This document shows positions 10,813-63,095 of a DNA stretch of 64,000 bases, in pieces. The translations under genes and the position numbers were made by a program. The DNA is taken from contig DYFA01000027.1 in the NCBI GenBank assembly GCA_020725425.1, positions 24,131 to 88,130 on the forward strand. The letters are read 5' to 3'. The stretch is from Aneurinibacillus sp. (GTDB lineage: Bacteria; Bacillota; UBA5301; DYFA01). The notes beneath the pieces are model-generated. The model did not search any database. It was given only the letters and a program-made list of their open reading frames with translations, and was not told the DNA's origin. How positions within the stretch are numbered: position 1 is the first letter of the stretch; each line of letters opens with the position of its first letter.

Positions 10813-11460
10813 TCAGCGCAGGTACGGGGTGAAAAGAAGCCAGGTGAGCGGGAGATCCACTGCCGCGACCGCCAGAATCCCGGCGTAGGAAGAGGAGAGG
10901 CGCCGGTCCTGCCGCAAGGAGACGGCGGCCCAAACCCCGAGGGCAAAGAAAGCGGTCGAGATGAGCCAGCCCACGGGTAGGGGAGCGAGCCAAGCCGGCA
11001 GGAGCGAGCGGACGGTGACCTCGTAGAAGGTGCGTCTCAGAAGCAGCGTTTTGCCGATCAGATAGGAAGCGAGGCCCAGGTTCATCACTGCCCGATCGTG
11101 GTGTTCTACCCAGGTCAGAGCTACCGCGGAGATGACAGTCACGACCGCCACGGTCAAGAGCACTGTAGCTGGGATGTAGTACAGCGCCAGGAAGAAGGAG
11201 AAGAGACCCAAGGCAGTGCCGGTCAGCGCTTCCCACAGATCCGCCGGAGCGAGGCGGTTATAGCGGCGGAAGGCGGTCCCGGTACCGGTGACCGAGATCC
11301 GGTAGCGGCCGAACCCGGCGCTCTCCGTGAAGCACAGGATCCGCTCTCCCTCCGTTCCGGCCAGGGTGGGTTGGAGAACCGCCCCGGTGGCCCGGGAGGC
11401 GAAGGCCGGCGCGGTCAATCCGTCAGGCCGCAGCGTTGCGGTGAAGGCTTGAAAGCTCAC
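10813..11460 (-). CDS. C-terminal part of a split membrane-anchored protein (about 4 transmembrane helices)
   Basis: Protein-like N-terminus (ATGAVLQPTLAGTEGERILCF) and C-terminal transmembrane helices. Its upstream reading frame continues in-frame to about 11556, overlapping the end of 11423..12196. Confidence 0.45.
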   Translation of the reverse strand: MSFQAFTATLRPDGLTAPAFASRATGAVLQPTLAGTEGERILCFTESAGFGRYRISVTGTGTAFRRYNRLAPADLWEALTGTALGLFSFFLALYYIPATVLLTVAVVTVISAVALTWVEHHDRAVMNLGLASYLIGKTLLLRRTFYEVTVRSLLPAWLAPLPVGWLISTAFFALGVWAAVSLRQDRRLSSSYAGILAVAAVDLPLTWLLFTPYLR

Positions 11461-12196
11461 CCCGTGGCGGCCGGAGACTTTCCCTGTGCCGGCGGCCTCG
11501 AGGTGTTCGCCGCCGGACGGTGGCCAGCTCCTGAGTGGCCAGGAGAAGGCTGGTCACTCTGGGCTTGTGCTGCTGCCAGAGAGTAAGGCAGTACAGGTTG
11601 GTCCGGTCGAACCCCACCTGAAGGCTGGCCAGTGACCGGCCCAGCGTGGTGAGGGACCCGAGGGAGTCGAGCTTGACCCCGCCGGGGGCGCTTTCGGGAA
11701 ACAGGACGGCGTGCCAGAGCGCCAGCTCTCCGGACCGGTCGGGCACAGCGAGCGCCAGGTGAAGCTCGCCGGCGGCCGCCACTGCCACCGTCCCGGCCGG
11801 GAGGCTGTACTGGGTGACCACCCGGCCAGACGGATCGAGCACGGCTCCGCCCGCTCCTCCGGGACTCACCCAGAAGAAGGCGCCGCTCCCGGCACCCCCG
11901 ACCACTTCTCCGGCGGGGCTGGCGCCCTCGATGAACCCCTGGCGGAGGACCCGCCCGTCGGGCGCGAGCCGGGCGAAGCGCACGGAATCTCCGGCCGCCC
12001 AGGCGAGGAGATAACCTTCACCCCTCAGGGTCTCCACTGCCACTGGCGTGTTGAGATCCGTCTCCCCCACGCGTACCGATCGGCTCCAGGCAGGCGACGG
12101 GGGAGAGACCACCCGCTGCAGTTCCTCGCTGAAGTGAAGGCCAGTGACTGCCAGGACCGTCAACCCCACCACCGCGACCCACGGTTTCATGCCCAT
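11423..12196 (-). CDS. N-terminal part of a split exported protein
   Basis: ATG at 12196 gives signal peptide MKPWVAVVGLTVLAVTGL. The last 40 residues are Arg-rich and look out-of-frame. This is probably one gene with 10813..11460, split by a frameshift. Confidence 0.45.
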   Translation of the reverse strand: MGMKPWVAVVGLTVLAVTGLHFSEELQRVVSPPSPAWSRSVRVGETDLNTPVAVETLRGEGYLLAWAAGDSVRFARLAPDGRVLRQGFIEGASPAGEVVGGAGSGAFFWVSPGGAGGAVLDPSGRVVTQYSLPAGTVAVAAAGELHLALAVPDRSGELALWHAVLFPESAPGGVKLDSLGSLTTLGRSLASLQVGFDRTNLYCLTLWQQHKPRVTSLLLATQELATVRRRTPRGRRHRESLRPPRGELSSLHRNAAA

Positions 12197-12292
12197 CTTC
12201 CTCGCGACTCTGGATATTCCCCGGCAGAGGGGGCGATTCCTGGGAGAGGCGGAGAGAAAGGTTTCTCCTTCGGGGCGCCGAATTCTCAGGTC

Positions 12293-13756
12293 ATGGACCG
12301 CACTCAGATGGCCTTTCAGTCGGTGGTGTTCTTCTTCTATGGCCTGGGCTTCTTCGTGCTGGGCATGGCCACCGCTTTCCAGTACCGGCCGCGGAGCGAG
12401 TTCCCGTTGACCAAGGCCATCTGGGCGCTGGCCGGCTTCGGCGTCTTTCATGCCTTTCACGAGTGGTCCCTGGTTTTCGCTCCCATCCAGGAGGCGATCC
12501 TGCCCCCCTCTGGCGTGTTGCTCTTCAAAGTGGGGGAGGCGGCGGCGACCGCCGTCTCGTGGGCTCTCCTCTGGCAGTTCGGCGCGCTGCTCCTGCCGCA
12601 GTCGGAGCGCGGCTCGCCGGTGCTGCGCCGGGTTCCGCTGGCGGTCTTCCTCGGCTGGCTGGTCTTGCTGGGTCGGGTGCATTACCTCCTCCGACTTCAC
12701 CCGCAGCCGCTGGCCATAGCCCTCGCCGAACTCCGCAGCCTCGAACACCTCGCCCACTACCTCCTCGGCGTGCCGGCCGCGGTGGTCACCGCTTGGGCCC
12801 TCCTGGGGCAGGCCGCGGAATTCCGCGCCACCAGGTTGGACTGCCTGGTAGCTCCCTTGCGCTGGGCGTCGTGTTCCTTTTTCTGTTACGCCGCATTGAC
12901 GGGGTTCGTCATTTACCGTCCCGGCCTCGGCCTGGTCTCCCTCTTCACCCAGACTGAGCTGGCGACCTGGTGGTCGGTGTCGGTGCAGGTGCTCCAGTTG
13001 TTCACCGTGGTCGTCATGACCATCGCCACGGTGCGTGTCCTGGGTATCTTCAACCTGGAGGGGGAGCGGCGGCTGGAGGAGGCCGAGACCCAGCGGGCGA
13101 TCCTCAACGAACGGCTCCGGATCAGCCGGGACCTGCACGACGGGGTCATGCAGTCCATCTATGCTGTGGGGTTGGCGCTGGAGAACGTGCTCTTCCTGAT
13201 GAGCGAGGATCACTCCCGCGCCCGGAACGAACTCGAACGCTCGATGGCCCGGCTCAACGACACGATTCAGGACATCCGGGGGTACATCCTGAATCTGCGG
13301 CCTGCCCGGAGGTCGACCGGGGACCTGTATGCCAGTGTGCTCGAGGTGGTGGCCCAGTTCCGGGCCGGCGTGGCCCTCCGGACGACCATCGAACTGGAAC
13401 CGCTCCGGGCGGTCAGCCTTCCGCCGGAACAGGTCGAGGAGGTCTGCCAGATCGTCCGGGAAGCGCTGACCAACGTCGCCCGCCACGCCCGCGCCACGGA
13501 GGTGGCCGTTACCGCCCGCCTCCAGTGGGGCCAGGCGGTGGAGCTCGCGGTATGGGACAACGGCCAGGGGTTCCAGCCTGCCAGTATCCGTCCCGAGGGG
13601 CGCCAGGGGTTGAGGAACATGCGGGAGCGGGCGGAGGGGATCGGCGGCAGCCTGGAGGTGAACAGCCGGCGCGGCCGGGGTACGGAGGTGGTGCTCCGCC
13701 TGCCGCTGGGAGGAGGGTCCGTGGATGAACCGGAGCATTCGCATAGTGCTGGTTGA
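12293..13756 (+). CDS. Sensor histidine kinase, NarL-family type (HisKA_3 + HATPase_c) with a multi-TM sensor
   Basis: Six or seven N-terminal transmembrane helices, followed by RISRDLHDGVMQSIYAVGLAL (H-box) and an ATPase domain (LTNVARHA...DNGQGF...GLRNMRERAEGIGGSL). The track ORF extends upstream to 11711 without support. Confidence 0.8.
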   Translation: MDRTQMAFQSVVFFFYGLGFFVLGMATAFQYRPRSEFPLTKAIWALAGFGVFHAFHEWSLVFAPIQEAILPPSGVLLFKVGEAAATAVSWALLWQFGALLLPQSERGSPVLRRVPLAVFLGWLVLLGRVHYLLRLHPQPLAIALAELRSLEHLAHYLLGVPAAVVTAWALLGQAAEFRATRLDCLVAPLRWASCSFFCYAALTGFVIYRPGLGLVSLFTQTELATWWSVSVQVLQLFTVVVMTIATVRVLGIFNLEGERRLEEAETQRAILNERLRISRDLHDGVMQSIYAVGLALENVLFLMSEDHSRARNELERSMARLNDTIQDIRGYILNLRPARRSTGDLYASVLEVVAQFRAGVALRTTIELEPLRAVSLPPEQVEEVCQIVREALTNVARHARATEVAVTARLQWGQAVELAVWDNGQGFQPASIRPEGRQGLRNMRERAEGIGGSLEVNSRRGRGTEVVLRLPLGGGSVDEPEHSHSAG

Positions 13757-22215: not shown

Positions 22216-24111
22216 ATGGTTATTCTGCTTCTGGTCGCCATCCCGCTGGCGGCGGGGTTGTTCACGCTGATCGGCGGGGCGTGGACGAGATACGTCGCCG
22301 TGGGTGGGGCCGTCCTGTCGCTTCTCTCGGGGGCAGCCCTCGTTCTGGCGCACGGCCGCCTCGCCCTGGATGCCGCCACCCTCCTCGGCGGCTTCCGTCC
22401 CGGCCCGCTCTTCGGGATTCTCGATGCCCTGCTCCTGGCCTACATCGGCCTGACCGGCTGGCGGCTGCGGCACCTCCTCCTCACCCTGCTTGCCTTGGTA
22501 CAACTGGCTGGGATCCTCTACCTCGAAGGGGTGCCCCGGCCCGAAGCCGGCCGCTTCGTCGTGGACGGGCTCTCGGCAGTGATGGTGCTCGTCGTCTCCG
22601 TCGTGGGTTCGCTGGTGGCCCTCTTCAGCCTCCCCTACATGCGGGAGTACGAGCGGCACGCCCAGGGCACGGCGGGACCCAGGCGCTTTTTCGCCGTGCT
22701 CCTCGCTTTCCTCGGCCTCATGAACGGCCTCGTCCTGGCCGATGACCTTCACTGGGTCTACTTCTTCTGGGAGGCGACCACCCTTGCCTCATTCCTGCTC
22801 ATCTCCCATCCGCAGTCGGGCGACGCCGTCCCCAACGCGGCCTATGCGCTGACGGTCAACTCGCTCGGAGGCGTGGCCTTCGTCGGCGCTCTGGTCCTGC
22901 TCGCGGGGCGGGGAGAAGCGTCCCTCGAACAGCTCGCGGCGACACCGCCTGCTCCCGGAATCCTCGTGCCGCTGGGGCTGCTCCTCTTCGCCGCCTTCAT
23001 CAAGGCCGCCCAGTTCCCCTTCCAGCGCTGGCTCACCGCGGCCATGGTGGCCCCCACCCCGGTCTCAGCCCTCCTCCACTCCAGCACCATGGTGAAGGCC
23101 GCCGTCTACCTCGTCCTTCGCCTGGCGCCGGCCTTCCGCGGCACACCCCTGGCGCTGGCGGCCGCCGTCTACGGGGCCTTCTCCTTCTTCGCCGGTTCGG
23201 CCACAGCCATCGGACAGGCCAACGGAAAGAAGGTGCTGGCCTACTCGACCATCGCCAACCTGGGGCTCATCATCGCCTGCGCCGGTGTGGGGACGACCGG
23301 CGCCCTCGCCGCCGCGATCCTCCTGGTCCTCTTCCACGCCGCCACCAAGGCGCTCCTCTTCCTCTGCGTGGGGACGATCGAGCACGGCATCGGCACCCGC
23401 AACATCGAGGAGATGGAAGGGGTCATGTGGAAGATGCCGGTGACGACGGTCCTAACCGTTCTCGCCATGCTGGCGATGGTGGTCCCCCCCTTCGGCATGC
23501 TGATCGGAAAGTGGCTGGCGATCGAATCGAGCGTCCGGACCCCGCTGGTCCTGGCCTTCGTCGTCTTCGGCTCCGCTTTCACTCTCGTCTTCTGGTCCAA
23601 GTGGATCGGCCGGATTCTCACCGTCTCCTACCACCGGAAGTTCCGCTGGGAGCGCCTGCCCGTCCTCCTCCGCCTTCCCAAGCTCCTGCTCCTTTTGGCC
23701 GTCTTCTCTGGGAGCATCGGCGTGGCGCCCCTCTACAACCGGCTCGTCCGGCCGGTGATCGTCGACCAGTTCGACGCCCGGGGCTTTGTCCGAACCGGCG
23801 GGGGAGGACTGACCACCGGCTTCGGGGATTTCCTGCCGTGGCCCATTTTCCTGGTCATCCTGGGAGTGCTGCTGCTCCTCCTCGTCATGGTCGGCCGACT
23901 CGAACCGGAGGACGCCCGACCGCCGTATCTTTGCGGAGAGAACGCCGACCAGAAGCCGGGAACGTCCTTCCACACCGCCCGGGACGAGGTGGAGATCGCT
24001 GAGACAGGCAACTTCTACCTGGAGTCGGTCTTCGGCGAGGGAATGGTGCGCCAGTGGGCCGACCCGCTAGCCCTGGCGATCCTGTTGCTGATGGTGGGGT
24101 TCCTGCGGTAA
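22216..24111 (+). CDS. echA: Ech-type hydrogenase membrane subunit (NuoL/MnhA antiporter-like; EchA/HyfB-like)
   Basis: 631-aa polytopic protein of the complex I antiporter-subunit family. First gene of an ech-like operon. Confidence 0.75.
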   Translation: MVILLLVAIPLAAGLFTLIGGAWTRYVAVGGAVLSLLSGAALVLAHGRLALDAATLLGGFRPGPLFGILDALLLAYIGLTGWRLRHLLLTLLALVQLAGILYLEGVPRPEAGRFVVDGLSAVMVLVVSVVGSLVALFSLPYMREYERHAQGTAGPRRFFAVLLAFLGLMNGLVLADDLHWVYFFWEATTLASFLLISHPQSGDAVPNAAYALTVNSLGGVAFVGALVLLAGRGEASLEQLAATPPAPGILVPLGLLLFAAFIKAAQFPFQRWLTAAMVAPTPVSALLHSSTMVKAAVYLVLRLAPAFRGTPLALAAAVYGAFSFFAGSATAIGQANGKKVLAYSTIANLGLIIACAGVGTTGALAAAILLVLFHAATKALLFLCVGTIEHGIGTRNIEEMEGVMWKMPVTTVLTVLAMLAMVVPPFGMLIGKWLAIESSVRTPLVLAFVVFGSAFTLVFWSKWIGRILTVSYHRKFRWERLPVLLRLPKLLLLLAVFSGSIGVAPLYNRLVRPVIVDQFDARGFVRTGGGGLTTGFGDFLPWPIFLVILGVLLLLLVMVGRLEPEDARPPYLCGENADQKPGTSFHTARDEVEIAETGNFYLESVFGEGMVRQWADPLALAILLLMVGFLR

Positions 24112-24161
24112 GGCCTGTGAGGTTAATACAGCGCACCTCCCGGCGGGAGACTATAACTTCG

Positions 24162-25034
24162 ATGGTTTACCGTCCACTCCTGATCGCTTTTGGAGTCCTT
24201 GTCCTGGCGCCGCTCCTGGGCGGGCTCCTCACCGGGTTCGACCGGTGGCTCTCGGCGCGCCTCCAGGCGAGGGTCGGCCCTCCGCTCTGGCAGCCCTTCG
24301 CCGACCTGGTGAAGCTGTGGCACAAGGACCGGCTCACCGTCAACGTGGTGCAGATCCTCTACGCCAACGCCTACCTACTCTTCGTCGCAGCTGCCCTGGC
24401 GGAGCTGGCCCTGGGCCACGACCTCCTGATGCTTCTCTTCACCCTCGCCTTCGGCACCATCTCGCTGGTGCTGGGGGGGTTCAGCGTCCGCTCCCCCTAC
24501 AGCCGGTTCGGAGCCCAGCGGGAGATCATGCAGCTTCTGGCGTACGAACCGATCCTGGTTCTGATGGTGGTGGCGATCTACCTCCGAACGGGCAGTTTCC
24601 TGGTGAGCCGGGTGGTCGTCTTCCCACGACCCTTGCTCCCCAGCCTGCCCCTGATCTTTCTCGGCTACCTGCTGGTCGTCGTCATCAAGCTGCGCAAGTC
24701 CCCCTTCGACCTGGCCACCTCACTCCACCACCCCCACCAGGAACTGGTCAAGGGCATTCTCACCGATTATTCCGGGCCATACTTGGGCATCATCGAGCTG
24801 GCCCACTGGTACGAGCTCGTCCTGCTTCTCGGTCTGGCGGGTCTCTTCTGGGCGACCAGCGTCTGGGCGGCGGCCGGGGTGGCTCTCCTGGTCTACCTGG
24901 CAGCCATCACCGTCGACAACGTCTCCGCCCGGGTTACCTGGGCCTGGATGCTGCGCTTCGCTTGGCAGGCGGGGCTGGGGTTGGCCGCCATCAACGTAGT
25001 CTGGCTGTACCTTTGGGGGGCGGGTATGCCGTGA
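24162..25034 (+). CDS. echB: Ech-type hydrogenase membrane subunit (NuoH/HycD-like; EchB)
   Basis: NuoH-family helices and N-terminal LLGGLLTGFDRWLSARLQARVGP..WQPFADLVKL. Confidence 0.8.
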   Translation: MVYRPLLIAFGVLVLAPLLGGLLTGFDRWLSARLQARVGPPLWQPFADLVKLWHKDRLTVNVVQILYANAYLLFVAAALAELALGHDLLMLLFTLAFGTISLVLGGFSVRSPYSRFGAQREIMQLLAYEPILVLMVVAIYLRTGSFLVSRVVVFPRPLLPSLPLIFLGYLLVVVIKLRKSPFDLATSLHHPHQELVKGILTDYSGPYLGIIELAHWYELVLLLGLAGLFWATSVWAAAGVALLVYLAAITVDNVSARVTWAWMLRFAWQAGLGLAAINVVWLYLWGAGMP

Positions 25035-25531
25035 GCATCGTGCGGTGGGCCCGGGGGAAGTCGCCCTGGTATTTCCACTACGAGACGGGGAGCTGCAACG
25101 GGTGCGCCATCGAGGTCTTCGCCCTCCAGACCCCCCTCTACGACCTGGAACGGTTCGGGATCATGAACACCGGCAACCCCAAGCACGCCGACCTCCTCCT
25201 CGTCACCGGCTGTGTCGGGTATCGGAGCGGGCGGGTGCTCCGGAACCTGTACCACCAGATGCCCGGGCCGAAGGCGGTGGTGGCGATCGGGGTCTGCGCC
25301 CTGACCGGCGGCATCTTCCACGACTGCTACAACCTGGCTCCGGGGGCCGACAAGGTGATACCGGTGGACGTCTACGTGCCGGGGTGCGCCCCCTGGCCGG
25401 AGGCCATGATCGACGGGATCCTCCTGGCGGCGGAGAAGCTCCGGGGGGCGCCGGTGGCCCGGGACCGCCGGCGCCTGGTCGAAGAGGAGGAACCGCCGGC
25501 CGGGGGGGCGGGGGAGGAGGGGAAGGCATGA
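25031..25531 (+). CDS. echC: [NiFe] hydrogenase small subunit (NuoB-like; EchC)
   Basis: NuoB-like Fe-S motifs GSCNGCAIE, AIGVCALTGGIF, VPGCAP. GTG at 25031 overlaps the upstream stop (GTGA). Confidence 0.85.
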   Translation: MSIVRWARGKSPWYFHYETGSCNGCAIEVFALQTPLYDLERFGIMNTGNPKHADLLLVTGCVGYRSGRVLRNLYHQMPGPKAVVAIGVCALTGGIFHDCYNLAPGADKVIPVDVYVPGCAPWPEAMIDGILLAAEKLRGAPVARDRRRLVEEEEPPAGGAGEEGKA

Positions 25532-25896
25532 TCCCGGACGTCACTCAGGTGGGAGTGGAGCAGTTGCTCACGGTGGTCCAGGGCTTGGCGGAGGAAGGGT
25601 GCCGGCTCGTCTCCATCACCGGCGTGGACGCCGGCGACGCCTTCGAGCTGCTCTACCACTTCGACCGGGAGTTGCGCCTGACCCACCTGCGGGTCCGTCT
25701 CCCGAAGGGGCAGGAACTGCCCAGCATCAGCCGGATCTACTTCTGCGCCTTCGTCCCCGAGAACGAACTCCAGGACTTCTTCGGGATCAGGGTGGCCAAC
25801 CCGGTGATCGACTACGGGGGGCACATGCTCCTCGCCCGCGAGTCGCCGGAGACGCCTCTCGTCAAGCGGGAGCGGCCGGAGGGGGCAGAGCGCTAG
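25528..25896 (+). CDS. echD: NuoC-like subunit (EchD)
   Basis: 122-aa NuoC/30 kDa-like domain. ATGA overlap with echC. Confidence 0.7.
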   Translation: MIPDVTQVGVEQLLTVVQGLAEEGCRLVSITGVDAGDAFELLYHFDRELRLTHLRVRLPKGQELPSISRIYFCAFVPENELQDFFGIRVANPVIDYGGHMLLARESPETPLVKRERPEGAER

Positions 25897-26975
25897 TGCC
25901 CGGCCAGAGCGTGATCCCCTTCGGGCCCCAGCACCCCGTCTTCCCCGAACCCCTCCAGTTACGCCTGGTGATGAAAGAGGAGCGGGTGCTGGAGGCCGTC
26001 CCCGCCCTCGGCTACATGCATCGGGGCTTGGAGAAGCTCGCTGAGACGAAGGACTACGCCCAGAACGTCTTCCTCATGGAGCGGGTCTGCGGCATCTGCA
26101 GCTTCATGCACTCCCTCTGCTACTGCCAGGCGCTCGAGGATCTGATGGGAATCGAGGTCCCGCCCCGGGCCCGCTACCTCCGGACCATCTGGGCCGAACT
26201 TGGCCGCCTCCAGTCCCACCACCTCTGGCTGGGCCTTTTGGCCGACGCCTTCGGGTTCGAGAGCCTCTTCATGGAGTGCTGGAAGAACCGGGAGATCGTG
26301 ATGGACCTCTGCGAGGCGACCACGGGGAACCGGGTGATCATCTCCGGCAACGCCGTCGGGGGCTGCCGGCGGGACCTCGAACCCTCGGTCCTGAAGGAGA
26401 TCGGGCGGCGGATGGACGACCTGGAGCGAGGGTTGGACCGGGTGGCGCCGGTCTTCCAGGACGACCCCCTGATCAAGCAACGCACTGTCGGGACGGGGAT
26501 CATCACCCGGGAGGAGGTCATCCGGCTTGGGGCGGTGGGGCCGGTCCTCCGGGCCAGCGGGGTGGCGCAGGACATGAGGCAGCTCGGCTACGCCGCCTAC
26601 GGGGAACTGGACTTCCGGCCGGTGGTGGAAACGGGCGGGGACTCCTACTCCCGGCTGATGGCGCGCCTCGGCGAGACCTACCAGGCGATCGACCTGGTCC
26701 GGCAGGCGCTGCGGAGGATCCCAGAGGGCGAGGTGCTGCCGAAGGTCAAGGGACGCCCGGAGGGAGAGGCGGTCAGCCGGGTGGAGCAGCCCCGGGGGGA
26801 GCTCCTGTACTACGTCCGGGCCACCGGGAAGCCGCAGCTCGACCGGGTGCGGGTGAGGACCCCGACCCTCTCCAACATCCCCCCGCTCGTCCGGATGCTG
26901 GAGGGGTGCCGCCTGTCCGACGTGCCGGTGATCGCCCTCTCCATCGACTCCTGCGTCAGTTGCACCGAGCGCTGA
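25896..26975 (+). CDS. echE: [NiFe] hydrogenase large subunit (NuoD-like; EchE)
   Basis: N-terminal Ni-binding motif RVCGICSFMH and C-terminal DSCVSCTER (the DPCxxCxxR type, ending at the stop), as in Ech/Mbh group 4 enzymes. 359 aa. Confidence 0.9.
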   Translation: MPGQSVIPFGPQHPVFPEPLQLRLVMKEERVLEAVPALGYMHRGLEKLAETKDYAQNVFLMERVCGICSFMHSLCYCQALEDLMGIEVPPRARYLRTIWAELGRLQSHHLWLGLLADAFGFESLFMECWKNREIVMDLCEATTGNRVIISGNAVGGCRRDLEPSVLKEIGRRMDDLERGLDRVAPVFQDDPLIKQRTVGTGIITREEVIRLGAVGPVLRASGVAQDMRQLGYAAYGELDFRPVVETGGDSYSRLMARLGETYQAIDLVRQALRRIPEGEVLPKVKGRPEGEAVSRVEQPRGELLYYVRATGKPQLDRVRVRTPTLSNIPPLVRMLEGCRLSDVPVIALSIDSCVSCTER

Positions 26976-48577: not shown

Positions 48578-49347
48578 CGCGACCCGCGGAGAACGCGCGC
48601 CGCTGGCGCCGGGACCAGATGCTCAGGCGAGGGATCTATGGCGCAGCGGGCCAGGGCGGTCCCGCCCAGGAGCATCGGGGAGACGACCCGGGTGGCACCG
48701 GCGAGATACAGCTTCCGCGCCGCCTCGGCGTTCGAGGCGGCGGCGATGATCTCGGCGTCCGGGTTGAGGTCCACTGCCTCGAGGACCACGTACGTGTTGT
48801 CCTCATCCGGCTCGAAGGTGACAATCACCCCGGCTGCCCGAGCCACCCCCGCCCGCTCGAGCACCTCCTGGCGCAGGGCGTTCCCGTGCACGAAGGGGAT
48901 GCCCAGCTGGCCGAGCTCCTCGGCTTTCTCGCCGACCCGGTCGATGACCACCACCTGCTTGCCCGCCCGGCGCAGCTCCTCCACGACGATCGTGCCGAGC
49001 CGGCCGTGTCCGCAGACCACGTAATGGCCGGAGAGCGAGTCGATCAATTTCTCCATGCGCCGCCACCTCCGCGTGAAGAGACCCCGGAAGTACTCCTCCA
49101 CGAGCGTGATTCCTACCCCGAAGATCAGGGCGATGGCGCTCGGGATCAGCAGGATGAGAAACAGCTTGCCGGCGGCCGTCTTCGGGACGAGATCCCCATA
49201 TCCGACAGTGGTGAAGGTGATCGTCGCCAGGTACAGGGCGTCAACGAGGGACAACCGCTCGACCCACATCAGGACGCCCACCGTCACGGCGTAGACCAGC
49301 GCCAGCAGCTTCAGATAGGTTGTGGCCCGGTTACTGGTGGTATTCAC
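48574..49347 (-). CDS. Two-TM potassium channel with C-terminal RCK/TrkA-N domain (MthK-like)
   Basis: Selectivity filter TTVGYGD between two transmembrane helices. RCK Rossmann motif VVCGHGRLG. Confidence 0.85.
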   Translation of the reverse strand: MNTTSNRATTYLKLLALVYAVTVGVLMWVERLSLVDALYLATITFTTVGYGDLVPKTAAGKLFLILLIPSAIALIFGVGITLVEEYFRGLFTRRWRRMEKLIDSLSGHYVVCGHGRLGTIVVEELRRAGKQVVVIDRVGEKAEELGQLGIPFVHGNALRQEVLERAGVARAAGVIVTFEPDEDNTYVVLEAVDLNPDAEIIAAASNAEAARKLYLAGATRVVSPMLLGGTALARCAIDPSPEHLVPAPAARVLRGSR

Positions 49348-49514
49348 CGGCTTTCCCTCCGCTACCCCTCACACTTTTCGGTGAGAGCCGGGCAAATCCT
49401 TGTGGCCGGACTGGTCGCAGCCGACAGGAGACTGGACAATTAGGGAAGCCATGGGAGGAACGGCTTTCCGGGCGGCGAATAGAACCATATCACGCACTCC
49501 CAGGGGGGATAGAC

Positions 49515-51338
49515 GTGGCCGATTCTGGGCTCGGTTCCCGCTCGCGGCTCGGGCGAGGCTCGCTCCTTCTTACTTTGGCCGTCGTCCTCGTCCTGGGGGG
49601 ACTCCCGGCCGCAGCCAGCGCCAGCCTGCCTGCCGCCGACCTTTTGGTCACCACCACTGGCGAGACCAAGCTGGTCGGAACGCTGGAAGAAGCCTATCTC
49701 TCCCTGGAAGCCTTCGGTACGGTCCTGCAGCTGCCGCTCGGTTTCGTCACCTCGCTTCAGAGGCTCGAGAACGGCCAGGTTCGCCTGGAGTTGATCAATC
49801 ACGACGTGCTCACCGGCACCCTACGCAACCGGGTGTTCTCCTTCTCCACCCCGTCAGCCAAGATGACCATCCCGGTCGAGAAGGTCAAGGCGCTCTCCCT
49901 AAAGACGCGGCAGGCGCCGCCGGAGGCCGTGGAGAGCCTCCTGGTCTCCCTCAAAAACGGTGATGCGCTGGCCTGGATGCTGGTGCCGACGGAACCGGTC
50001 ATCCTCTCGTTCGAGACTTCGTTCAGCGACCCGATCCGGATCCAGCTCGACAAGGTGCGGGAGATCCGCCTGAAGGACGGCGCACCGGATATCGCGGAGT
50101 TGGGGAACGGGGACGTGATCTTCGGGCGGCTCCAGGACTCCCTTCTCCGGGTGCGGACGTACTATCAGCCCGTGGAGCTCCCCCGGGCCGAGGTGGCGAG
50201 CATCGTCTTTCTGAGCAAGCAGGAAGCCAAAGCCCGCTTCACCGGCGTTGAGGAAGCGGAGCCAGCCGCCCCTGCCCAACCTCCGGCTCCCCCTGCCCAG
50301 GCCGCCGCACCGGCGGGCGCCCGCCCGCTTACGGCGACCAGCCTGACTATCAGTACCGCGAACCCTTTGGCTGACCCGCGCGTGGCCGATGCCTACCAGC
50401 CCTTTTCCGATTACACCTATAGCTCCATAGGGGCGTTGGCTGTGGCAGTGGGGGTGCCTGGGGTCAGCGGCGAGAAGACGGGGCGGGAGATCTGGGTGTA
50501 TCACCGCACGGGGAAGCGGGTGGTGATCGAGGCGCCCGGCGAGGCCTCGTCACCGGCCTGGAGCCCGGACGGCCAACGCCTGGCGTACGACTTCCGGCCG
50601 GCCGGCTCGCCCACCTCCGAGATCTGGATCAGCGCGGCCGACGGTTCCTCCCGCCGGCAGCTTTCCCGAGACGGGGCGGGTTCCCATTCCAGCCTCGCCT
50701 GGTCACCCGAGGGCAAGCGCCTGGCCTACGTGGCCCGGGATTACCAGACCGGCACCAACGGGGTCTGGGTGATGAGCCTGGACGGCGGTGCGGCGGTGAG
50801 GCTGCTCTCCAGCAACTTTGACTACTTCTCCAGCCTCCAGTGGTCGCCCGACGGGCGGAAGCTCCTGGTCGTCAGCGGGGTGCCCGGGGCGAACCCCCGC
50901 TCCACCCTGAAGCTGATCGACGTGGAGAGCAAGGCGGTGATGGATTTCCTGCCGCGGACGGACAAAGGAGGGGTCAATGATCACCCCCGCTGGTCGCCGG
51001 ACGGCCGGGAGATCGCCTTCTCCTCCGACCGGAGCGGGACCCGCCAGATCTGGCTCGTCCGGGCTGACGGCACCAACCTCCGCCGCCTGACCAGTGGAGA
51101 CGAGCCGAAGGACTTCCCGGTGTGGTCGCCCGACAGCCGGGTGGTGATGTATTGGGCGGGGCGGAACGGTTTGGGTAACCTCTGGCTGGTCAACGCCTCT
51201 GGGGGAGAGAGCGTCCAGTTGACCAGCAGCGGGCGGATCACCGGGCGGGCCGAGTGGTCCCCGGACGGCCAGCAGATGGTGTTCACCAAGCGCGAGCAGA
51301 GTCTCCAGCTTTGGACGGCGGTCCTGGTGGCCAAGTGA
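49515..51338 (+). CDS. Secreted protein: two unknown ~85-aa modules + Pro/Ala linker + TolB-like beta-propeller
   Basis: GTG at 49515, signal peptide. Two N-terminal modules are paralogous to the next gene. The C-terminus carries 6 or more repeats of type WSPDG(Q/R)..A/VW. Confidence 0.6.
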   Translation: MADSGLGSRSRLGRGSLLLTLAVVLVLGGLPAAASASLPAADLLVTTTGETKLVGTLEEAYLSLEAFGTVLQLPLGFVTSLQRLENGQVRLELINHDVLTGTLRNRVFSFSTPSAKMTIPVEKVKALSLKTRQAPPEAVESLLVSLKNGDALAWMLVPTEPVILSFETSFSDPIRIQLDKVREIRLKDGAPDIAELGNGDVIFGRLQDSLLRVRTYYQPVELPRAEVASIVFLSKQEAKARFTGVEEAEPAAPAQPPAPPAQAAAPAGARPLTATSLTISTANPLADPRVADAYQPFSDYTYSSIGALAVAVGVPGVSGEKTGREIWVYHRTGKRVVIEAPGEASSPAWSPDGQRLAYDFRPAGSPTSEIWISAADGSSRRQLSRDGAGSHSSLAWSPEGKRLAYVARDYQTGTNGVWVMSLDGGAAVRLLSSNFDYFSSLQWSPDGRKLLVVSGVPGANPRSTLKLIDVESKAVMDFLPRTDKGGVNDHPRWSPDGREIAFSSDRSGTRQIWLVRADGTNLRRLTSGDEPKDFPVWSPDSRVVMYWAGRNGLGNLWLVNASGGESVQLTSSGRITGRAEWSPDGQQMVFTKREQSLQLWTAVLVAK

Positions 51339-51368: not shown

Positions 51369-52043
51369 ATGAAGAGGACGAGGCGCACGTTGGGGATGGC
51401 AGCCGTAGGACTTTGGCTGGTGTTGGCTCTGGGAAGCCCGGCCTGGGCTGCGGTGGGCGTGATCGAGACGACCGCCGGTGAGACCCTGGAGGGACAACTG
51501 GCCGAGGAGTTCGTCTTCCTCGAGAGCCCAATCGTGGGGCAACTCACTCTCGCAGCCAACCAGGTGACGCGGGTCACGATCTCCCCCGGGAAGGTGGAAC
51601 TGGCCGGGGGGGACGTGCTCTCCGGGACCATCAAGAACGAGCTGATCCACTTCACGACCGAGTTCGCCGCCGTCGCCATCCGCACGGACAAGGTGCGCAG
51701 TCTCACCGTGAAAGACGTGACCCTGCCGGCGGGAGCGCCGGGCGGTGTCGAGGTGCGATTGCGCAACGGCGACCAGGTCCGGGGGGCCTTGACCTTCGAC
51801 CGGGCTGCCCGGCCGAGCGTCGGGGTGTCGACCAGCTACGCCGGGACGGTCAGCGTGGCGCTGGGCGAGATCGCCGACATCCAGTCGACCGGCGACCAGT
51901 ACCTGGTCACCATGCGGGACGGGTCCCGGCTCACCGGCGCTATCACCAACGCCTTCTTCGTCCTGCGGACCGCTTACGGGGAACTGGTTCTCCCTCGGGC
52001 GGCCATCGCCAGCTTCACCTTTCCCAAGACCGTCAAGAAGTGA
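51369..52043 (+). CDS. Secreted protein consisting of the same two-module domain as the N-terminus of the upstream gene
   Basis: Signal peptide. Module 1 (IETTAGETLEGQL...VLSGTIKNE...KVRSLTVK) and module 2 (NGDQVRG...GDQYLVTM...LPRAAIASFTF) match the upstream protein (e.g. LPRAEVASIVF). Confidence 0.55.
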   Translation: MKRTRRTLGMAAVGLWLVLALGSPAWAAVGVIETTAGETLEGQLAEEFVFLESPIVGQLTLAANQVTRVTISPGKVELAGGDVLSGTIKNELIHFTTEFAAVAIRTDKVRSLTVKDVTLPAGAPGGVEVRLRNGDQVRGALTFDRAARPSVGVSTSYAGTVSVALGEIADIQSTGDQYLVTMRDGSRLTGAITNAFFVLRTAYGELVLPRAAIASFTFPKTVKK

Positions 52044-52839
52044 GTCGGGTGTGGTAGGCGGGCAGACGCACGAGTTCCACCTCGCCGGCGACGGCGAGGT
52101 GGTCGCCTTTTACGAGGAGGGCTCCGGCCACGCCGGGGACGGTGAGGGCCCAGTCGGCCGCCGCCTGGAGGTCCGCCGCGGAGTGCACCCGGTTGCCGGC
52201 GGCGGTGGCCACCGCGTCGGCCAGCGCGGCGTCCGGGGCCACGACTACCGCCGCGTCGGCACTCCCGAAGCTGAGGGACGGCCCGACCGTCCCGGCGGAG
52301 GTGCAGACGCCGGTGGGCAACTTCTCCGGGGGGAGGCGGAGGCCGAGGAGGCCAGTGAAGGGGGATTCGCCGGCGAAGACGGCGACGGTTAGCGGCTGCC
52401 GGGAGGCCAGGTAGAGGTCGCCGCCGTTCTCAATCACCACCTCGGAAGTCTGTTCTCGCAGCTTCTCCCCGACCTCCGCCGCGATAGCTCCGGCCACCGC
52501 CGCCATCGGCCCTACACCGGCGGCTTCCGCAGCCCGGGCCATGCGTCGGACGAGGCGGGGCGCATGGGGCGGCACCGGGCGCGGGGCGAGGGCGGTCCAG
52601 AAGGCGGGGTCCACGGCCAGAAAGGCTTCGAGGCCCCGCCGCGCCTCCCGGACGAGCTGTTCCACGAAGCGCCGCCAGGCGGCGACGTCCGCCTCCCGTC
52701 CCCCACCCCCTCCGGCTGCCGGCCCCAGGCGGACGAAGAGGTCCGTCTCCTGGATCCGGACCTCGAAGGAGACCAGGTCCGGCGCCTCCCGGGTCCAGGT
52801 GCGGTAGGTCCGCCGAACGTACGAGCGGGGGTGGCGCAT
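52033..52839 (-). CDS. UPF0280/COG2122 (ApbE-like) protein, a frequent partner of COG1900 in homocysteine biosynthesis clusters
   Basis: Family-level recognition from gene context and the Gly/Ala-rich C-terminal half. Confidence 0.5.
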   Translation of the reverse strand: MRHPRSYVRRTYRTWTREAPDLVSFEVRIQETDLFVRLGPAAGGGGGREADVAAWRRFVEQLVREARRGLEAFLAVDPAFWTALAPRPVPPHAPRLVRRMARAAEAAGVGPMAAVAGAIAAEVGEKLREQTSEVVIENGGDLYLASRQPLTVAVFAGESPFTGLLGLRLPPEKLPTGVCTSAGTVGPSLSFGSADAAVVVAPDAALADAVATAAGNRVHSAADLQAAADWALTVPGVAGALLVKGDHLAVAGEVELVRLPAYHTRLTS

Positions 52840-52840
52840 C

Positions 52841-53251
52841 TCAGAAGGAGACCCGGAGGATCCCCAGCGGGCAGGCGGTCACGCACTGCTCGCAGACGAT
52901 ACATCTGTCCTGGTCGAAGGAGAGCTCCCAGCTCTCCGGGTTGAGCGCCAACGCCTGGGGGCGGCAGACGGCGGTGCAGGCCCCGCAGTGGATGCACTCC
53001 GCCTCGTTCCACGTGATCTCCCGGGAAAGCGGCTCCACCTGCGCCCCGTTCTCCCGGAGGAAGGCCAGCCCCCGCTCGACCTGTTCCTCCGAGGAGTTAC
53101 CGATCTCGAGGACGAGCTTTCCCTCCTCCTCAGGGGAGATGCGGGCGAAGAGGATGTTGATCACCAGGTCGAAGTCCTTGACCAGATGGTAGGTGAGGGG
53201 CTTCTCCGCAAGCCCGGGGGGGAAGGTGATGACGATGCGCTTCTTGATCAT
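52841..53251 (-). CDS. NIL-domain + 2x[4Fe-4S] ferredoxin protein
   Basis: N-terminal NIL-like domain (VITFPPGLAEKPLTYHLVKDFDLVINILFARI). Two Cys clusters CIHCGACTAVC and CIVCEQCVTACP. Confidence 0.7.
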   Translation of the reverse strand: MIKKRIVITFPPGLAEKPLTYHLVKDFDLVINILFARISPEEEGKLVLEIGNSSEEQVERGLAFLRENGAQVEPLSREITWNEAECIHCGACTAVCRPQALALNPESWELSFDQDRCIVCEQCVTACPLGILRVSF

Positions 53252-53254
53252 GGG

Positions 53255-54421
53255 CTACTCCTCTCCTTCCGCCTGCCGGATAGTCAACGGCCGGAACGGG
53301 GTGGTGGCCGGGAGCGGCTGAACCGGCGGGTTCAGGGCGAACCGGCCGGCCCGCACCTCCTCCCGGAGCAGAGCGGCGATCCGGCGGGCCTTGGCCAGGC
53401 TGCTCAGGGGAGCAGTGGGAACGCGCCGGCCCTGCAGGGTCACGGCGCCGCTGCGCAGCTCGGCGTAGCTTACCTGCGCCAGCGCCGGCCGGGACCGGAC
53501 GGGGACGCCGTAATCGTAGACGCTGGTCAGGATATCCTTGTCCCGGATGGCCAACTGGGCGGCGAGGTCCTGGTCCAGTACCGGGATAGGGACGCCGACA
53601 CCGACGTAGAGCGTCACCCCGTAACGGTGGAAAACCGCCGCCCGGAGGTACTCGCGGCTCATCTCCTTCAGGTTGCCGATCAGCGCCAGGGTCCCCGCCC
53701 CGCCCAGCGGCACCCCCTGATCTGTCCGCTTGACGGCCGGGTTGTGCTGCGTCCCCTCCCAGGCCACGTAACCCTGGGCGCCGCCGAGGAAGACCCGTGT
53801 GCCGACCCCGATGGTGCGGTAGTACGGGTCGTTCAGGAGCGGGCTCAACTGGCCGGCGGTGGAGTAGGTGACGTTGCCGTACCTGGGCAGGAGAGTGCCC
53901 ATGTAGGTGTAGATGGTCCGGTCGGACCCGTTGGTCGCCGCAGCGTAGTTCTGGTAGGCGTTGCGGGGGTTGAAGAGATAGGCCTGGTTGACCTCGCGCA
54001 GGCTCACCCAGGTCTCCACCTCGCGCCGGGGGTAGCAGTCGGTTCCCTGGGAGACCGCCCGCAGCCGTACCCGTTTCCCGGCCACCAGTTCCTCGATGAC
54101 GTGGGCCCCGCCGTAGGTCGGGTCGAGTTCGGACTGCTCGGTGGCGCCGAGGTAGGCGTCCACGGCTGCCAGGCCTCCATAGGCCGGAACGCCGTTGAGC
54201 CAGACCCGGCTCATCTTGATCGGCGGGTCGGCGTGCCCGAAGTTCAGAAAAGCCCCGGAAGAACACATGGCGCCGAAGGTGGCGGTGGTGACCACGTCCA
54301 CCGTCTCGGCGGCCCGGTCAACCCCCTGCTCGTCGACCGCCTTCAGGAATTCCTCCTTGGTCAGGACGACCGCTTTCCCTTGGCGTATGCGGTGTGCGAT
54401 CTCTTCGTAGCTCTTGGCCAT
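53255..54421 (-). CDS. COG1900/DUF39 homocysteine biosynthesis protein (sulfide-dependent route)
   Basis: Characteristic N-terminus MAKSYEEIAHRIRQGKAVVLTKEEF...VDVVTTATFGAMCSSGAFLNFG...WLNGVPAYGG.AAVDAYLGAT. The gene is preceded by a SAM riboswitch. Confidence 0.7.
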   Translation of the reverse strand: MAKSYEEIAHRIRQGKAVVLTKEEFLKAVDEQGVDRAAETVDVVTTATFGAMCSSGAFLNFGHADPPIKMSRVWLNGVPAYGGLAAVDAYLGATEQSELDPTYGGAHVIEELVAGKRVRLRAVSQGTDCYPRREVETWVSLREVNQAYLFNPRNAYQNYAAATNGSDRTIYTYMGTLLPRYGNVTYSTAGQLSPLLNDPYYRTIGVGTRVFLGGAQGYVAWEGTQHNPAVKRTDQGVPLGGAGTLALIGNLKEMSREYLRAAVFHRYGVTLYVGVGVPIPVLDQDLAAQLAIRDKDILTSVYDYGVPVRSRPALAQVSYAELRSGAVTLQGRRVPTAPLSSLAKARRIAALLREEVRAGRFALNPPVQPLPATTPFRPLTIRQAEGEE

Positions 54422-54439
54422 GCCGTTCCCTCCTTGCCG

Positions 54440-54645
54440 GTCTCTGCCCCGCCCCGCGGCGGGGCGTAAAGAAAGCGCCTGTTCCCTTGAGTGGAAAGGC
54501 GCCGGACAGGCCGTTTCTCATCTCTCAGGAACTGCTTCCTGCAGGATTTGGCACCGCACGGCCGGGCCGCCGGTTGCCGAGGCTTCATCGGGCCAGTCCC
54601 TCCACCTCTCGCGATGAGACCTTTGTGGTATGCGGTTGTAGTTGT
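54440..54645 (-). promoter_or_regulatory. SAM-I (S-box) riboswitch with terminator-like expression platform
   Basis: Minus strand reads CUCAUCgcGAGAGGUGGAGGGACUGGCCCGAUGAAGCCUCGGCAACC...GUGCGGUGCCAAAUCCUGCAGGAAG...GAGAUGAGA, which matches the SAM-I core and P1 pairing. It is followed by GGCGCC...GGCGCUUUCUUUA. Confidence 0.8.
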
Positions 54646-54652
54646 TGCTCCT

Positions 54653-54681
54653 ACTCTACCACCTGGACCCTCCCTTGTCAA
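54653..54681 (-). promoter_or_regulatory. Promoter of the riboswitch-controlled homocysteine operon
   Basis: Minus strand TTGACA (54681..54676), 17-nt spacer, TAGAGT (54658..54653). Confidence 0.5.
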
Positions 54682-54707
54682 CCACTATGACATCACCACT
54701 ATGACAT
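54681..54707. repeat. Tandem direct repeat 2 x ACCACTATGACAT abutting the -35 element
   Basis: Exact 13-mer repeated with 14-bp periodicity (54681-54693 and 54695-54707). Confidence 0.5.
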
Positions 54708-54825
54708 TCACTTTGTGACCGGGTGGGTGGAGACTCGCACCGGGGCGGGTCATGCCCGGCCCTCGGGCGGCGTAGGATTCTGGCAGGCCGCCGGAGAAAG
54801 CTACCGGCGACGGAGGGACAGCCCC

Positions 54826-55635
54826 ATGGAATGGCCGGACGAGGTAAAAGGGCTGCTGGAGGCGTTTCCCGGCGAGGTCTCGCTGGCGGTCGAGGTCCTG
54901 CCGGAGGGCGGGGGACCGGGGGCGCGGCTGAGCCACCGGGCGGAGGAGGCTTATCCGGCGGCGAGCCTGATCAAGCTGCCGGTGCTTCTTGCGGCGTTAG
55001 AGGCAGCCGAGCGGGGAGAGCTGCCGCTCGAGCAGGAAGTGGCGGTAGGGGGGGAAGCTACCGGCGGGGCCGGGGTGGTGGAGCACTTCCACCCCGGGAC
55101 CCGCCTTACCCTGGGCGACCTCCTCCTTTGCATGACCGCGGTCAGCGACAACGCCGCCACCAACCACGTGCTCGACCTGGTCGGGTTCGAGGCGGTGAAT
55201 GCCCTGTCCAGCAGGTTGGGGCTGAAGGATACTCTCCTGCGCCGGCGGATGATGGACGCCGCAGCGCGGGCCGCGGGGCGGGAGAACACCACCACCGCCG
55301 CCGACATGCACCGCCTCCTGCGCCAGTTGGTCCGTCCGGAGCTGGTCTCGCCGCGGGTGGCGGCCCACGCCCGCCGGCTGCTCGCGCTTCAACAGTTGAA
55401 GCTGGGATTCGGCACTTTCCTGCCCGAGGAGCGGGTCGCCCACAAGACGGGGGACTTGGCGGGTCTCTTCCACGACGCGGGCCTGGTGGACCCGGAGGGG
55501 CCGGTGACGGTGGTGTACGCCTTCCTCTCCAGGGGGGTGGAGAACCTCGGCGAGGCCTCGGTGGCTGCGGGGCGGGTGGGCCAGGCCGTGGCGGCGTGGG
55601 CGGCGTCCCTGGCCGGGGAGGGGCGCGGGCGATGA
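54826..55635 (+). CDS. Class A beta-lactamase-like serine hydrolase
   Basis: S-x-x-K (ASLIKLP), SDN and KTG (HKTGD) motifs. ATG 9 nt after GGAGGG. The track ORF 54715/54723 starts are unsupported. Confidence 0.7.
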   Translation: MEWPDEVKGLLEAFPGEVSLAVEVLPEGGGPGARLSHRAEEAYPAASLIKLPVLLAALEAAERGELPLEQEVAVGGEATGGAGVVEHFHPGTRLTLGDLLLCMTAVSDNAATNHVLDLVGFEAVNALSSRLGLKDTLLRRRMMDAAARAAGRENTTTAADMHRLLRQLVRPELVSPRVAAHARRLLALQQLKLGFGTFLPEERVAHKTGDLAGLFHDAGLVDPEGPVTVVYAFLSRGVENLGEASVAAGRVGQAVAAWAASLAGEGRGR

Positions 55636-62249: not shown

Positions 62250-63095
62250 TCAGATTTCCGCCGGGGGAGCGTGAAGGGCCTGACGTTCGAGGTAGAGGCG
62301 GAGGGTGTCGCCGCGCAGGCCGCGCCGCAGCGCCTCCACTGCCAGGACCTCCCGGGGCGGAATGTTGCCGAGGTTCACTTCCGGCCCGAAGCGGGCGATC
62401 ATGCACTCCTGCTGGTTCTTCAGCGGTGTCTCCCAGATCAGGGCGTTCGGGTCAGGCAGGCCGGCCAGGAGGTCGTCCACCTCCACCACCTTGACGGCCC
62501 CACTGGCGTCGTAGACCCCGACGCCTTTCCCGGACTCCCGCCCTTCCACGATTACGTGGGAGACGCCTTCGTCCAGGTCCCGGCGGATTTGGTCGCGGAG
62601 GAAAGCCAGGGGCGGCTGGGAGGCGGTGTCCTTCTTCCCCACCTCGCTGATTACCGTGAGGCCGGCGCTCAGCCCTACCCGGACGGCCCGGGCCCGCTCG
62701 GCGGGTGAAAGGGGGATGGTGCCGTCAGAGACCTCGAGGGCGGTGAAGCCGAGTTCGCAGGCGTGCTCGACAAACCGTTCGAGTCTTCCCTGCAGGAGCG
62801 CCACCTCCAGAAGAGTGCCTCCGGGGTAGACGCCGGTCCGGTAGGCGCGGATCAACTCGATCTTCTTCGCCAGCAGCGACTGGTCGTACAGGGCCGAGGT
62901 GCCGAAGGCCAGCTTGACATAGTCGATGTAGTCCCCTGCCAGCTCGAGCAGGTCCCGGGTTTCGCTCAACCCCAGCCCCTTGTCGATGATGACCGTGAGG
63001 CCGCATAGCCGCGGCTTGGTGGAGCGGCCGGGGAAGGGATCGGCGATGATTCCCTCCCACGCCCGCGCACGGTTCTCCCCTGGCAGGTTCGACAC
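62250..63095 (-). CDS. (2R)-phospho-3-sulfolactate synthase (ComA/YitD) family protein
   Basis: TIM-barrel family pattern KPR..GLTVIIDKGLG......LELAGDYIDYVKLAFGTS...K. Confidence 0.6.
   Translation of the reverse strand: MSNLPGENRARAWEGIIADPFPGRSTKPRLCGLTVIIDKGLGLSETRDLLELAGDYIDYVKLAFGTSALYDQSLLAKKIELIRAYRTGVYPGGTLLEVALLQGRLERFVEHACELGFTALEVSDGTIPLSPAERARAVRVGLSAGLTVISEVGKKDTASQPPLAFLRDQIRRDLDEGVSHVIVEGRESGKGVGVYDASGAVKVVEVDDLLAGLPDPNALIWETPLKNQQECMIARFGPEVNLGNIPPREVLAVEALRRGLRGDTLRLYLERQALHAPPAEI

Follow-up and report, generated by a model that had tools for sequence, protein, structure and literature searches.

We analyzed a 64,000-nt stretch of an Aneurinibacillus sp. genome (Bacillota; assembly GCA_020725425.1, contig DYFA01000027.1), which is called the window below, and focused on a three-gene operon of its minus strand. 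The operon's very probable function is to form homocysteine from aspartate semialdehyde and sulfide by a direct route; this assignment was drawn from the sequence, and for the chemistry and the need for all three proteins we relied on published work on homologues. The roles of each protein in detail are held with lower confidence than the pathway assignment. The operon comprised the following genes, in the order of transcription:

53255 to 54421, minus strand: DUF39/COG1900a gene, open reading frame (ORF) of 388 amino acids (aa)
52841 to 53251, minus strand: NIL-ferredoxin gene, ORF of 136 aa
52033 to 52839, minus strand: COG2122/UPF0280 gene, ORF of 268 aa

The three co-directional genes were located where the initial annotation of this DNA had placed them, and the ORF listing gave gaps of 3 nt between the DUF39 and NIL-ferredoxin genes and 1 nt between the NIL-ferredoxin and COG2122 genes. 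The title of that annotation named the right members of the cluster, but in the order COG2122, NIL-ferredoxin, DUF39, which is the reverse of transcription. The operon was limited to three genes because a convergent ORF on the plus strand overlaps the COG2122 stop codon. This plus-strand gene (51369-52043, 224 aa, no Pfam family) shares 11 nt at its 3' end with the end of the COG2122 gene, and the gene upstream of it (49320-51338, plus strand), which encodes a large PD40/Tricorn-like beta-propeller protein, is also convergent on the operon.

The 388-aa protein matched PF01837 (HcyBio, formerly DUF39) with an E-value of 6.2e-155, and its residues 17-363 aligned with positions 1-349 of the 349 in the profile, so that the protein corresponded to COG1900 over the full length of the domain. 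The family is described as 'homocysteine biosynthesis enzyme, sulfur-incorporation'. The motifs VDVVTTATFG and LNGVPAYGG, which had been quoted as signs of the family, were both found in the protein. It contained exactly two cysteines, C53 (GAMCSSG) and C129 (GTDCYP), each conserved without exception in 81 of 81 relatives. Proteins of the L-ASST (L-aspartate semialdehyde sulfurtransferase) type, COG1900a, are reported to have two cysteines that are near-universal, Cys54 (essential) and Cys131 in Methanosarcina acetivorans MA1821 (PMC12068725), and C53 and C129 fit these positions by residue numbering and motif context. On TIGR03287, the model for the coenzyme M synthase paralogue MMP16, the score was 142.6 bits, far under the cutoff of 363.95. 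In the Pfam scan, no Fer4 domain was detected in the protein, so none is inserted in its COG1900 domain, and there was no CBS match either, the C-terminus lying 25 residues past the COG1900 domain. The CBS domain does not define the bacterial form, because the validated bacterial protein Dde_3007 is also without it (PMC4045070). The AlphaFold model of the protein reached a predicted local distance difference test score (pLDDT) of 86 and a predicted template modeling score (pTM) of 0.86. No relative was found in the PDB by sequence or by fold, and this absence of a similar solved structure is a property of the whole DUF39 family, not of this locus. Taken from these features, the DUF39/COG1900a protein is predicted to be the catalytic subunit of L-ASST, and we infer from family features and homologue names that it is orthologous to the tested members MA1821, Dde_3007 and DvMF_1464. 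Two close homologues (P0074 and P0113) bear the source name 'L-aspartate semialdehyde sulfurtransferase', and others are named 'homocysteine biosynthesis protein'.

The 136-aa protein carried a NIL domain (PF09383, E-value 3.7e-15) followed by two CxxCxxCxxxCP motifs or Fer4 domains, in agreement with the NIL domain joined to 2x[4Fe-4S] described before. All of its eight cysteines were invariant in 80 of 80 relatives. It is predicted to be the electron-donating subunit and is possibly methionine-sensing as well. Methionine binding has been reported for the NIL domain, as has binding of S-adenosylmethionine (SAM) by the archaeal CBS domain (PMC12068725). Fusion proteins of DUF39 and ferredoxin were present among the homologues, and therefore support a physical partnership of the two.

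For the 268-aa protein, no match was obtained in the Pfam copy that was scanned; it passed NCBIfam NF003323 (PRK04334 family) with 275.1 bits at a cutoff of 271, and a precomputed match to PF27030 'AbpE_bact' was available. Its full-length relative in the PDB was 2o34, with E-values of 1.5e-33 for the single sequence and 2.7e-64 for the profile; we take 2o34 to be a Desulfovibrio vulgaris protein, the entry being titled only 'Hypothetical protein'. Residue C179 was kept in 72 of 74 relatives. The COG2122 homologues of two related loci (L028 and L038) seemed to contain in-frame stops, which were dismissed as tblastn extensions beyond the true stop codon. The initial annotation had called this protein ApbE-like; its COG2122 membership was upheld, but the link to ApbE came from family naming and literature; searched against the PDB, a profile of 22 sequences matched 2o34 alone, and none of the ApbE structures was reached at an E-value of 10 or below. 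The relation of COG2122 to ApbE has been described as distant and as not reaching the flavin-binding region (PMC5764234). By analogy with its homologues, the COG2122/UPF0280 protein would be a required accessory factor, with a proposed role in sulfur (persulfide) delivery.

The leader of the operon contained a set of regulatory elements, which were arranged as follows from promoter to start codon:

54653 to 54681, minus strand: sigma-70-like promoter (TTGACA, 17-nt spacer, TAGAGT, with TG before the -10 element, extended type)
54515 to 54620, minus strand: SAM-I (S-box) riboswitch aptamer, RF00162
54468 to 54503, minus strand: predicted expression platform, an intrinsic-terminator hairpin (GGCGCCUUUCC / GGAACAGGCGC, with one bulge, then UUUCUUU)
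54446 to 54465, minus strand: second G+C hairpin (GCCCCGCC-GCGG-GGCGGGGC, -20.7 kcal/mol)
54428 to 54435, minus strand: ribosome-binding site (AAGGAGGG, 6 nt ahead of the ATG, read from the sequence)

The aptamer scored 88.8 bits, where the gathering score is 44.4 (E-value 9e-20, model positions 1-108 of 108), and was the sole Rfam match in the window. It ended 93 nt before the ATG of the DUF39 gene, with no ORF between. Its assignment to this operon was supported by its place directly upstream on the same strand and by the same arrangement in related species, as given below; it falls beyond the span of 52033-54421 that the initial annotation had given. The promoter, about 30 nt upstream of the aptamer, matched the consensus at 10 of 12 positions, and it was the only such site in the 3.1 kb from 51800 to 54900, where shuffled sequences gave 0.1 sites on average. 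The folding energy of the terminator hairpin was -15.4 kcal/mol. A consensus terminator scan overlooked this hairpin because its stem is bulged, and it was revealed by folding, which also predicted a competing pairing of the 3' strands of aptamer stems P4 and P1 with the loop and 3' arm of the terminator. The second hairpin followed the U-tract of the terminator and preceded the ribosome-binding site. The leader is predicted to have the classical S-box layout of a switch that terminates transcription upon SAM binding. In the collection of papers that was searched, none mentioned a riboswitch together with COG1900.

The conservation of the operon was evaluated in relatives. The protein search returned at least 8000 homologues of the DUF39 protein at E-values of 1e-10 or below; identity was 63-87% among the best 120, of which most were Bacillota proteins, and several of them were named 'homocysteine biosynthesis protein' or 'L-aspartate semialdehyde sulfurtransferase'. 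Loci from 80 species-representative related genomes were compared. In 79 of the 80, DUF39 was immediately followed on its own strand by the NIL-ferredoxin gene, and COG2122 lay downstream on that strand in 68, while in 4 further loci, from metagenome-assembled genomes (MAGs) labelled Actinomycetota or Actinomycetes, it was divergent and upstream. A SAM-I riboswitch was present upstream of DUF39 in 38 of the 80 loci. In 36 of these 38, a distance of 57-202 nt separated the riboswitch end from the start of DUF39, and Rfam upheld each of the 15 weakest riboswitch calls (52-101 bits). With the window locus included, a simple scan detected a hairpin with a U-tail in 28 of 39 riboswitch-bearing loci.

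Several variations of the neighborhood were observed in these genomes. The 42 riboswitch-less loci, which fell between L006 and L081, included L008, L009, L012, L041, L049 and L063, and several of this kind had a divergent ORF of 132-138 aa without a Pfam family about 180-280 nt away (L008 3420-3818, L049 3369-3785, L063 3307-3717). In two Clostridia MAGs (L007 3056-3970, plus strand; L014 about 3101-3967, plus strand), the SAM-I riboswitch was about 1 kb upstream of DUF39, and a 304-aa ORF lay between them, without a Pfam family or a counterpart in the window, and with 78% identity between the two loci; this ORF might belong to the SAM regulon as an additional gene. A RACo-type corrinoid protein reductive activator (PF14574/PF17651) was encoded by the gene that immediately precedes DUF39, on the strand of DUF39, in L028 (2728-3975, plus strand) and L040, which would fit a link to the reactivation of cobalamin-dependent methionine synthase. 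Four MAGs of PRJNA950955 (L002, L013, L023 and L039), labelled Betaproteobacteria, Patescibacteria and Bacteroidota, had DUF39 proteins 64-87% identical to the window protein, together with the same operon and SAM-I riboswitch; the taxonomic labelling of these bins seems unreliable.

The function of the three families has been studied in other anaerobes. The DUF39 protein was necessary for homocysteine synthesis in Desulfovibrio alaskensis (PMC4045070). In D. vulgaris Miyazaki, the DUF39 protein, the NIL/ferredoxin and the COG2122 protein were each required, the mutants were rescued by methionine, and homoserine was not an intermediate (PMC5764234). The same paper describes cell-extract and genetic work which indicates that sulfur at the level of sulfide is transferred reductively to aspartate semialdehyde and homoserine is bypassed. 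PMC5764234, summarising Rauch et al. and Allen et al., reports that a conserved DUF39 cysteine is persulfidated in vivo, and gives the proposals that a thioaldehyde intermediate is reduced via ferredoxin and that COG2122 aids persulfide loading. The L-ASST of M. acetivorans has been identified as MA1821-22 (PMC12068725).

On this basis, a working mechanism can be proposed for the window operon. Transcription would start at the sigma-70-type promoter and proceed through the SAM-I riboswitch. With abundant SAM, the aptamer would close, the terminator hairpin with its U-tract would form, and the operon would be off; when SAM is scarce, the alternative pairing would block termination. The SAM-sensing RNA probably shuts off the operon. 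Of the products, the DUF39/COG1900a protein would use its conserved cysteines to add sulfur to aspartate semialdehyde at the aldehyde carbon, the NIL-[4Fe-4S]2 ferredoxin would be the source of the reducing electrons, with a NIL domain that may sense methionine, and the COG2122/UPF0280 protein would assist in sulfur loading or delivery.

The domain matches, the position of the riboswitch and the subfamily cysteines together supported the homocysteine-pathway reading of the trio, which the initial annotation had proposed. Several points weigh against it. COG1900 paralogues with other aldehyde substrates exist (PMC12068725), and the match of C53 and C129 to the cysteines of MA1821 does not come from a direct alignment. 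The fold of the whole leader was not significantly more stable than that of shuffled sequence (z=-1.58). No riboswitch of any Rfam class was found upstream in 42 of the 80 related loci, and therefore SAM control is not obligatory for the system. No other methionine gene was found in the window, to which the survey of alternative routes was confined.

The COG1900 paralogues run analogous aldehyde-to-thiol reactions, and L-ASST may partly replace MMP16 (PMC12068725). A rival reading is that the DUF39 enzyme uses another aldehyde and that its product is a thiol other than homocysteine, such as the coenzyme M that MMP16/ComF makes from sulfoacetaldehyde. It was prompted by a gene for ComA, (2R)-phospho-3-sulfolactate synthase, that lies about 8 kb from the operon (62250-63086, minus strand; PF02679, E-value 1.2e-84), but nine unrelated genes in mixed orientations part the two, and a functional tie was unsupported. 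The operon is predicted to be under the direct control of a SAM riboswitch, the catalytic protein falls well below the MMP16 cutoff and is free of any ferredoxin insertion, and a NIL-ferredoxin encoded by a gene of its own is the partner, as with MA1822. A change of substrate is thus very improbable here. It seems distinctly unlikely, too, that the operon, and COG2122 especially, serves general sulfide assimilation or persulfide trafficking, as proposed for Methanosarcina MA1715, instead of being dedicated to homocysteine. According to PMC5764234, M. acetivorans MA1715 mutants are rescued by high sulfide, cysteine or homocysteine, and COG2122 has been proposed to load persulfides on DUF39 and SepCysS alike. 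Against this stand the place of COG2122 in the same unit with its predicted SAM control, 1 nt past the NIL-ferredoxin gene, its position after the other two genes in most of the related species (68 of 80, as above), and the correlation of the D. vulgaris COG2122 fitness profile with that of DUF39 (r=0.98), with methionine rescuing the mutants (PMC5764234).

The cluster might also be redundant or decaying, with homocysteine made by classical homoserine-based sulfhydrylase routes, and M. acetivorans does survive the loss of L-ASST in minimal medium (PMC12068725). Decay is, however, hard to reconcile with three intact ORFs that keep every conserved residue, all cysteines included, with a promoter, riboswitch, terminator and ribosome-binding site that are all intact, and with a G+C content that is the same as in the flanking DNA, and we hold this explanation to be exceedingly improbable. 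Direct synthesis of homocysteine from aspartate semialdehyde and sulfide is by far the most probable function of the operon.

The trio was compared with the systems that have been described. The wording 'methanogen-type' in a bacterium had implied a rarity that was overstated, as the system is usual among many anaerobic bacteria, for which it is on record in the literature (PMC4045070, PMC5764234). D. vulgaris Miyazaki F, an anaerobic bacterium, has the same three families (DvMF_1464 for DUF39, DvMF_0262 for NIL/ferredoxin, DvMF_0044 for COG2122; PMC5764234), and Dde_3007 of D. alaskensis is a DUF39 protein without CBS, like the window protein (PMC4045070). The Desulfovibrio genes are apparently dispersed, as judged from their distant locus tags, whereas those of the window form one operon. 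A SAM-I riboswitch precedes the window operon in cis, whereas the known SAM-I element of D. vulgaris Hildenborough lies ahead of another gene, a small one (bioRxiv 10.1101/803072). In Dehalococcoides ethenogenes, a non-proteobacterial anaerobe of another phylum, the DUF39-pathway genes are clustered (DET0921:DET0919), as cited in PMC5764234.

M. acetivorans MA1821-MA1822 and MA1715 likewise provide a COG1900a subunit with two conserved cysteines, a NIL-ferredoxin and a COG2122 protein (PMC12068725, PMC5764234). MA1715 is away from MA1821-22 by locus tag, whereas the window COG2122 gene is within the operon. The archaeal subunit has C-terminal CBS domains for allosteric sensing of SAM, whereas SAM sensing at the RNA level is predicted for the window protein, and the missing C-terminal CBS domain and this RNA-level control would be the only differences from the methanogen enzyme. 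MMP16/ComF (COG1900d, TIGR03287) shares PF01837 and an analogous aldehyde-to-thiol reaction; unlike in the window protein, its COG1900 domain is interrupted by an inserted ferredoxin domain, and the conserved cysteines are found elsewhere (PMC12068725). With the classical S-box regulon of Bacillota, the operon shares the canonical aptamer, the terminator-type platform and a methionine-pathway operon downstream, but the classical targets are of the metI/metC, metE, metK and metNPQ type and here the target is the L-ASST trio.

Identical copies of all three proteins were found in GCA_030019095.1, a MAG labelled Bacillota bacterium, where GenBank names them 'homocysteine biosynthesis protein' (MDI6871458.1), 'NIL domain-containing protein' (MDI6871459.1) and 'UPF0280 family protein' (MDI6871460.1). 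The neighbors in the window were bacterial, including LysM/YkuD and NlpC/P60 proteins, a secretin, a trp operon and hydrogenase/complex-I-like subunits, and there were further genes for Nramp, MgtE, ABC transporters and cell-wall enzymes. Recent horizontal transfer was considered and rejected, as the G+C content of the cluster was 0.66-0.73, the same as in its flanks. The secretin (PF00263 plus STN; 4546-5808, plus strand) and the Mrp-antiporter/complex-I-like and NiFe-hydrogenase-like subunits (22216-26975, plus strand) are suggestive of an anaerobic member of the Bacillota that is of the diderm type and has an energy-converting hydrogenase. The NCBI contig JASEFQ010000015.1 (61,967 bp) stops near window position 29312, and the initial 29 kb of the window would then belong to a second contig, of 115 kb, on which the same proteins are encoded. 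A look-up of the window ORF 11423-13744 gave no match.

The pathway itself is already known, from genetics in Desulfovibrio published in 2014 and 2018, and the first protein already bears a name for its role in GenBank. The value of the present result lies mainly in annotation, as automated pathway tools miscalled organisms with this route as methionine auxotrophs (PMC5764234). The functional name given by NCBI is on the first gene alone, and the conserved operon supports a pathway role for all three. The mildly interesting point is regulatory, in that RNA would sense SAM in place of CBS, and about half of the related operons are without a known riboswitch. We tentatively suggest, and with some doubt, that feedback on L-ASST in this Bacillota lineage is split, the riboswitch sensing SAM (replacing the archaeal CBS) and the NIL domain perhaps sensing methionine, and that the 42 related operons without CBS or an Rfam riboswitch may use an undescribed regulator. 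The complete trio with its riboswitch indicates that direct conversion of aspartate semialdehyde and sulfide is probably how this uncultured member of the Bacillota obtains homocysteine.

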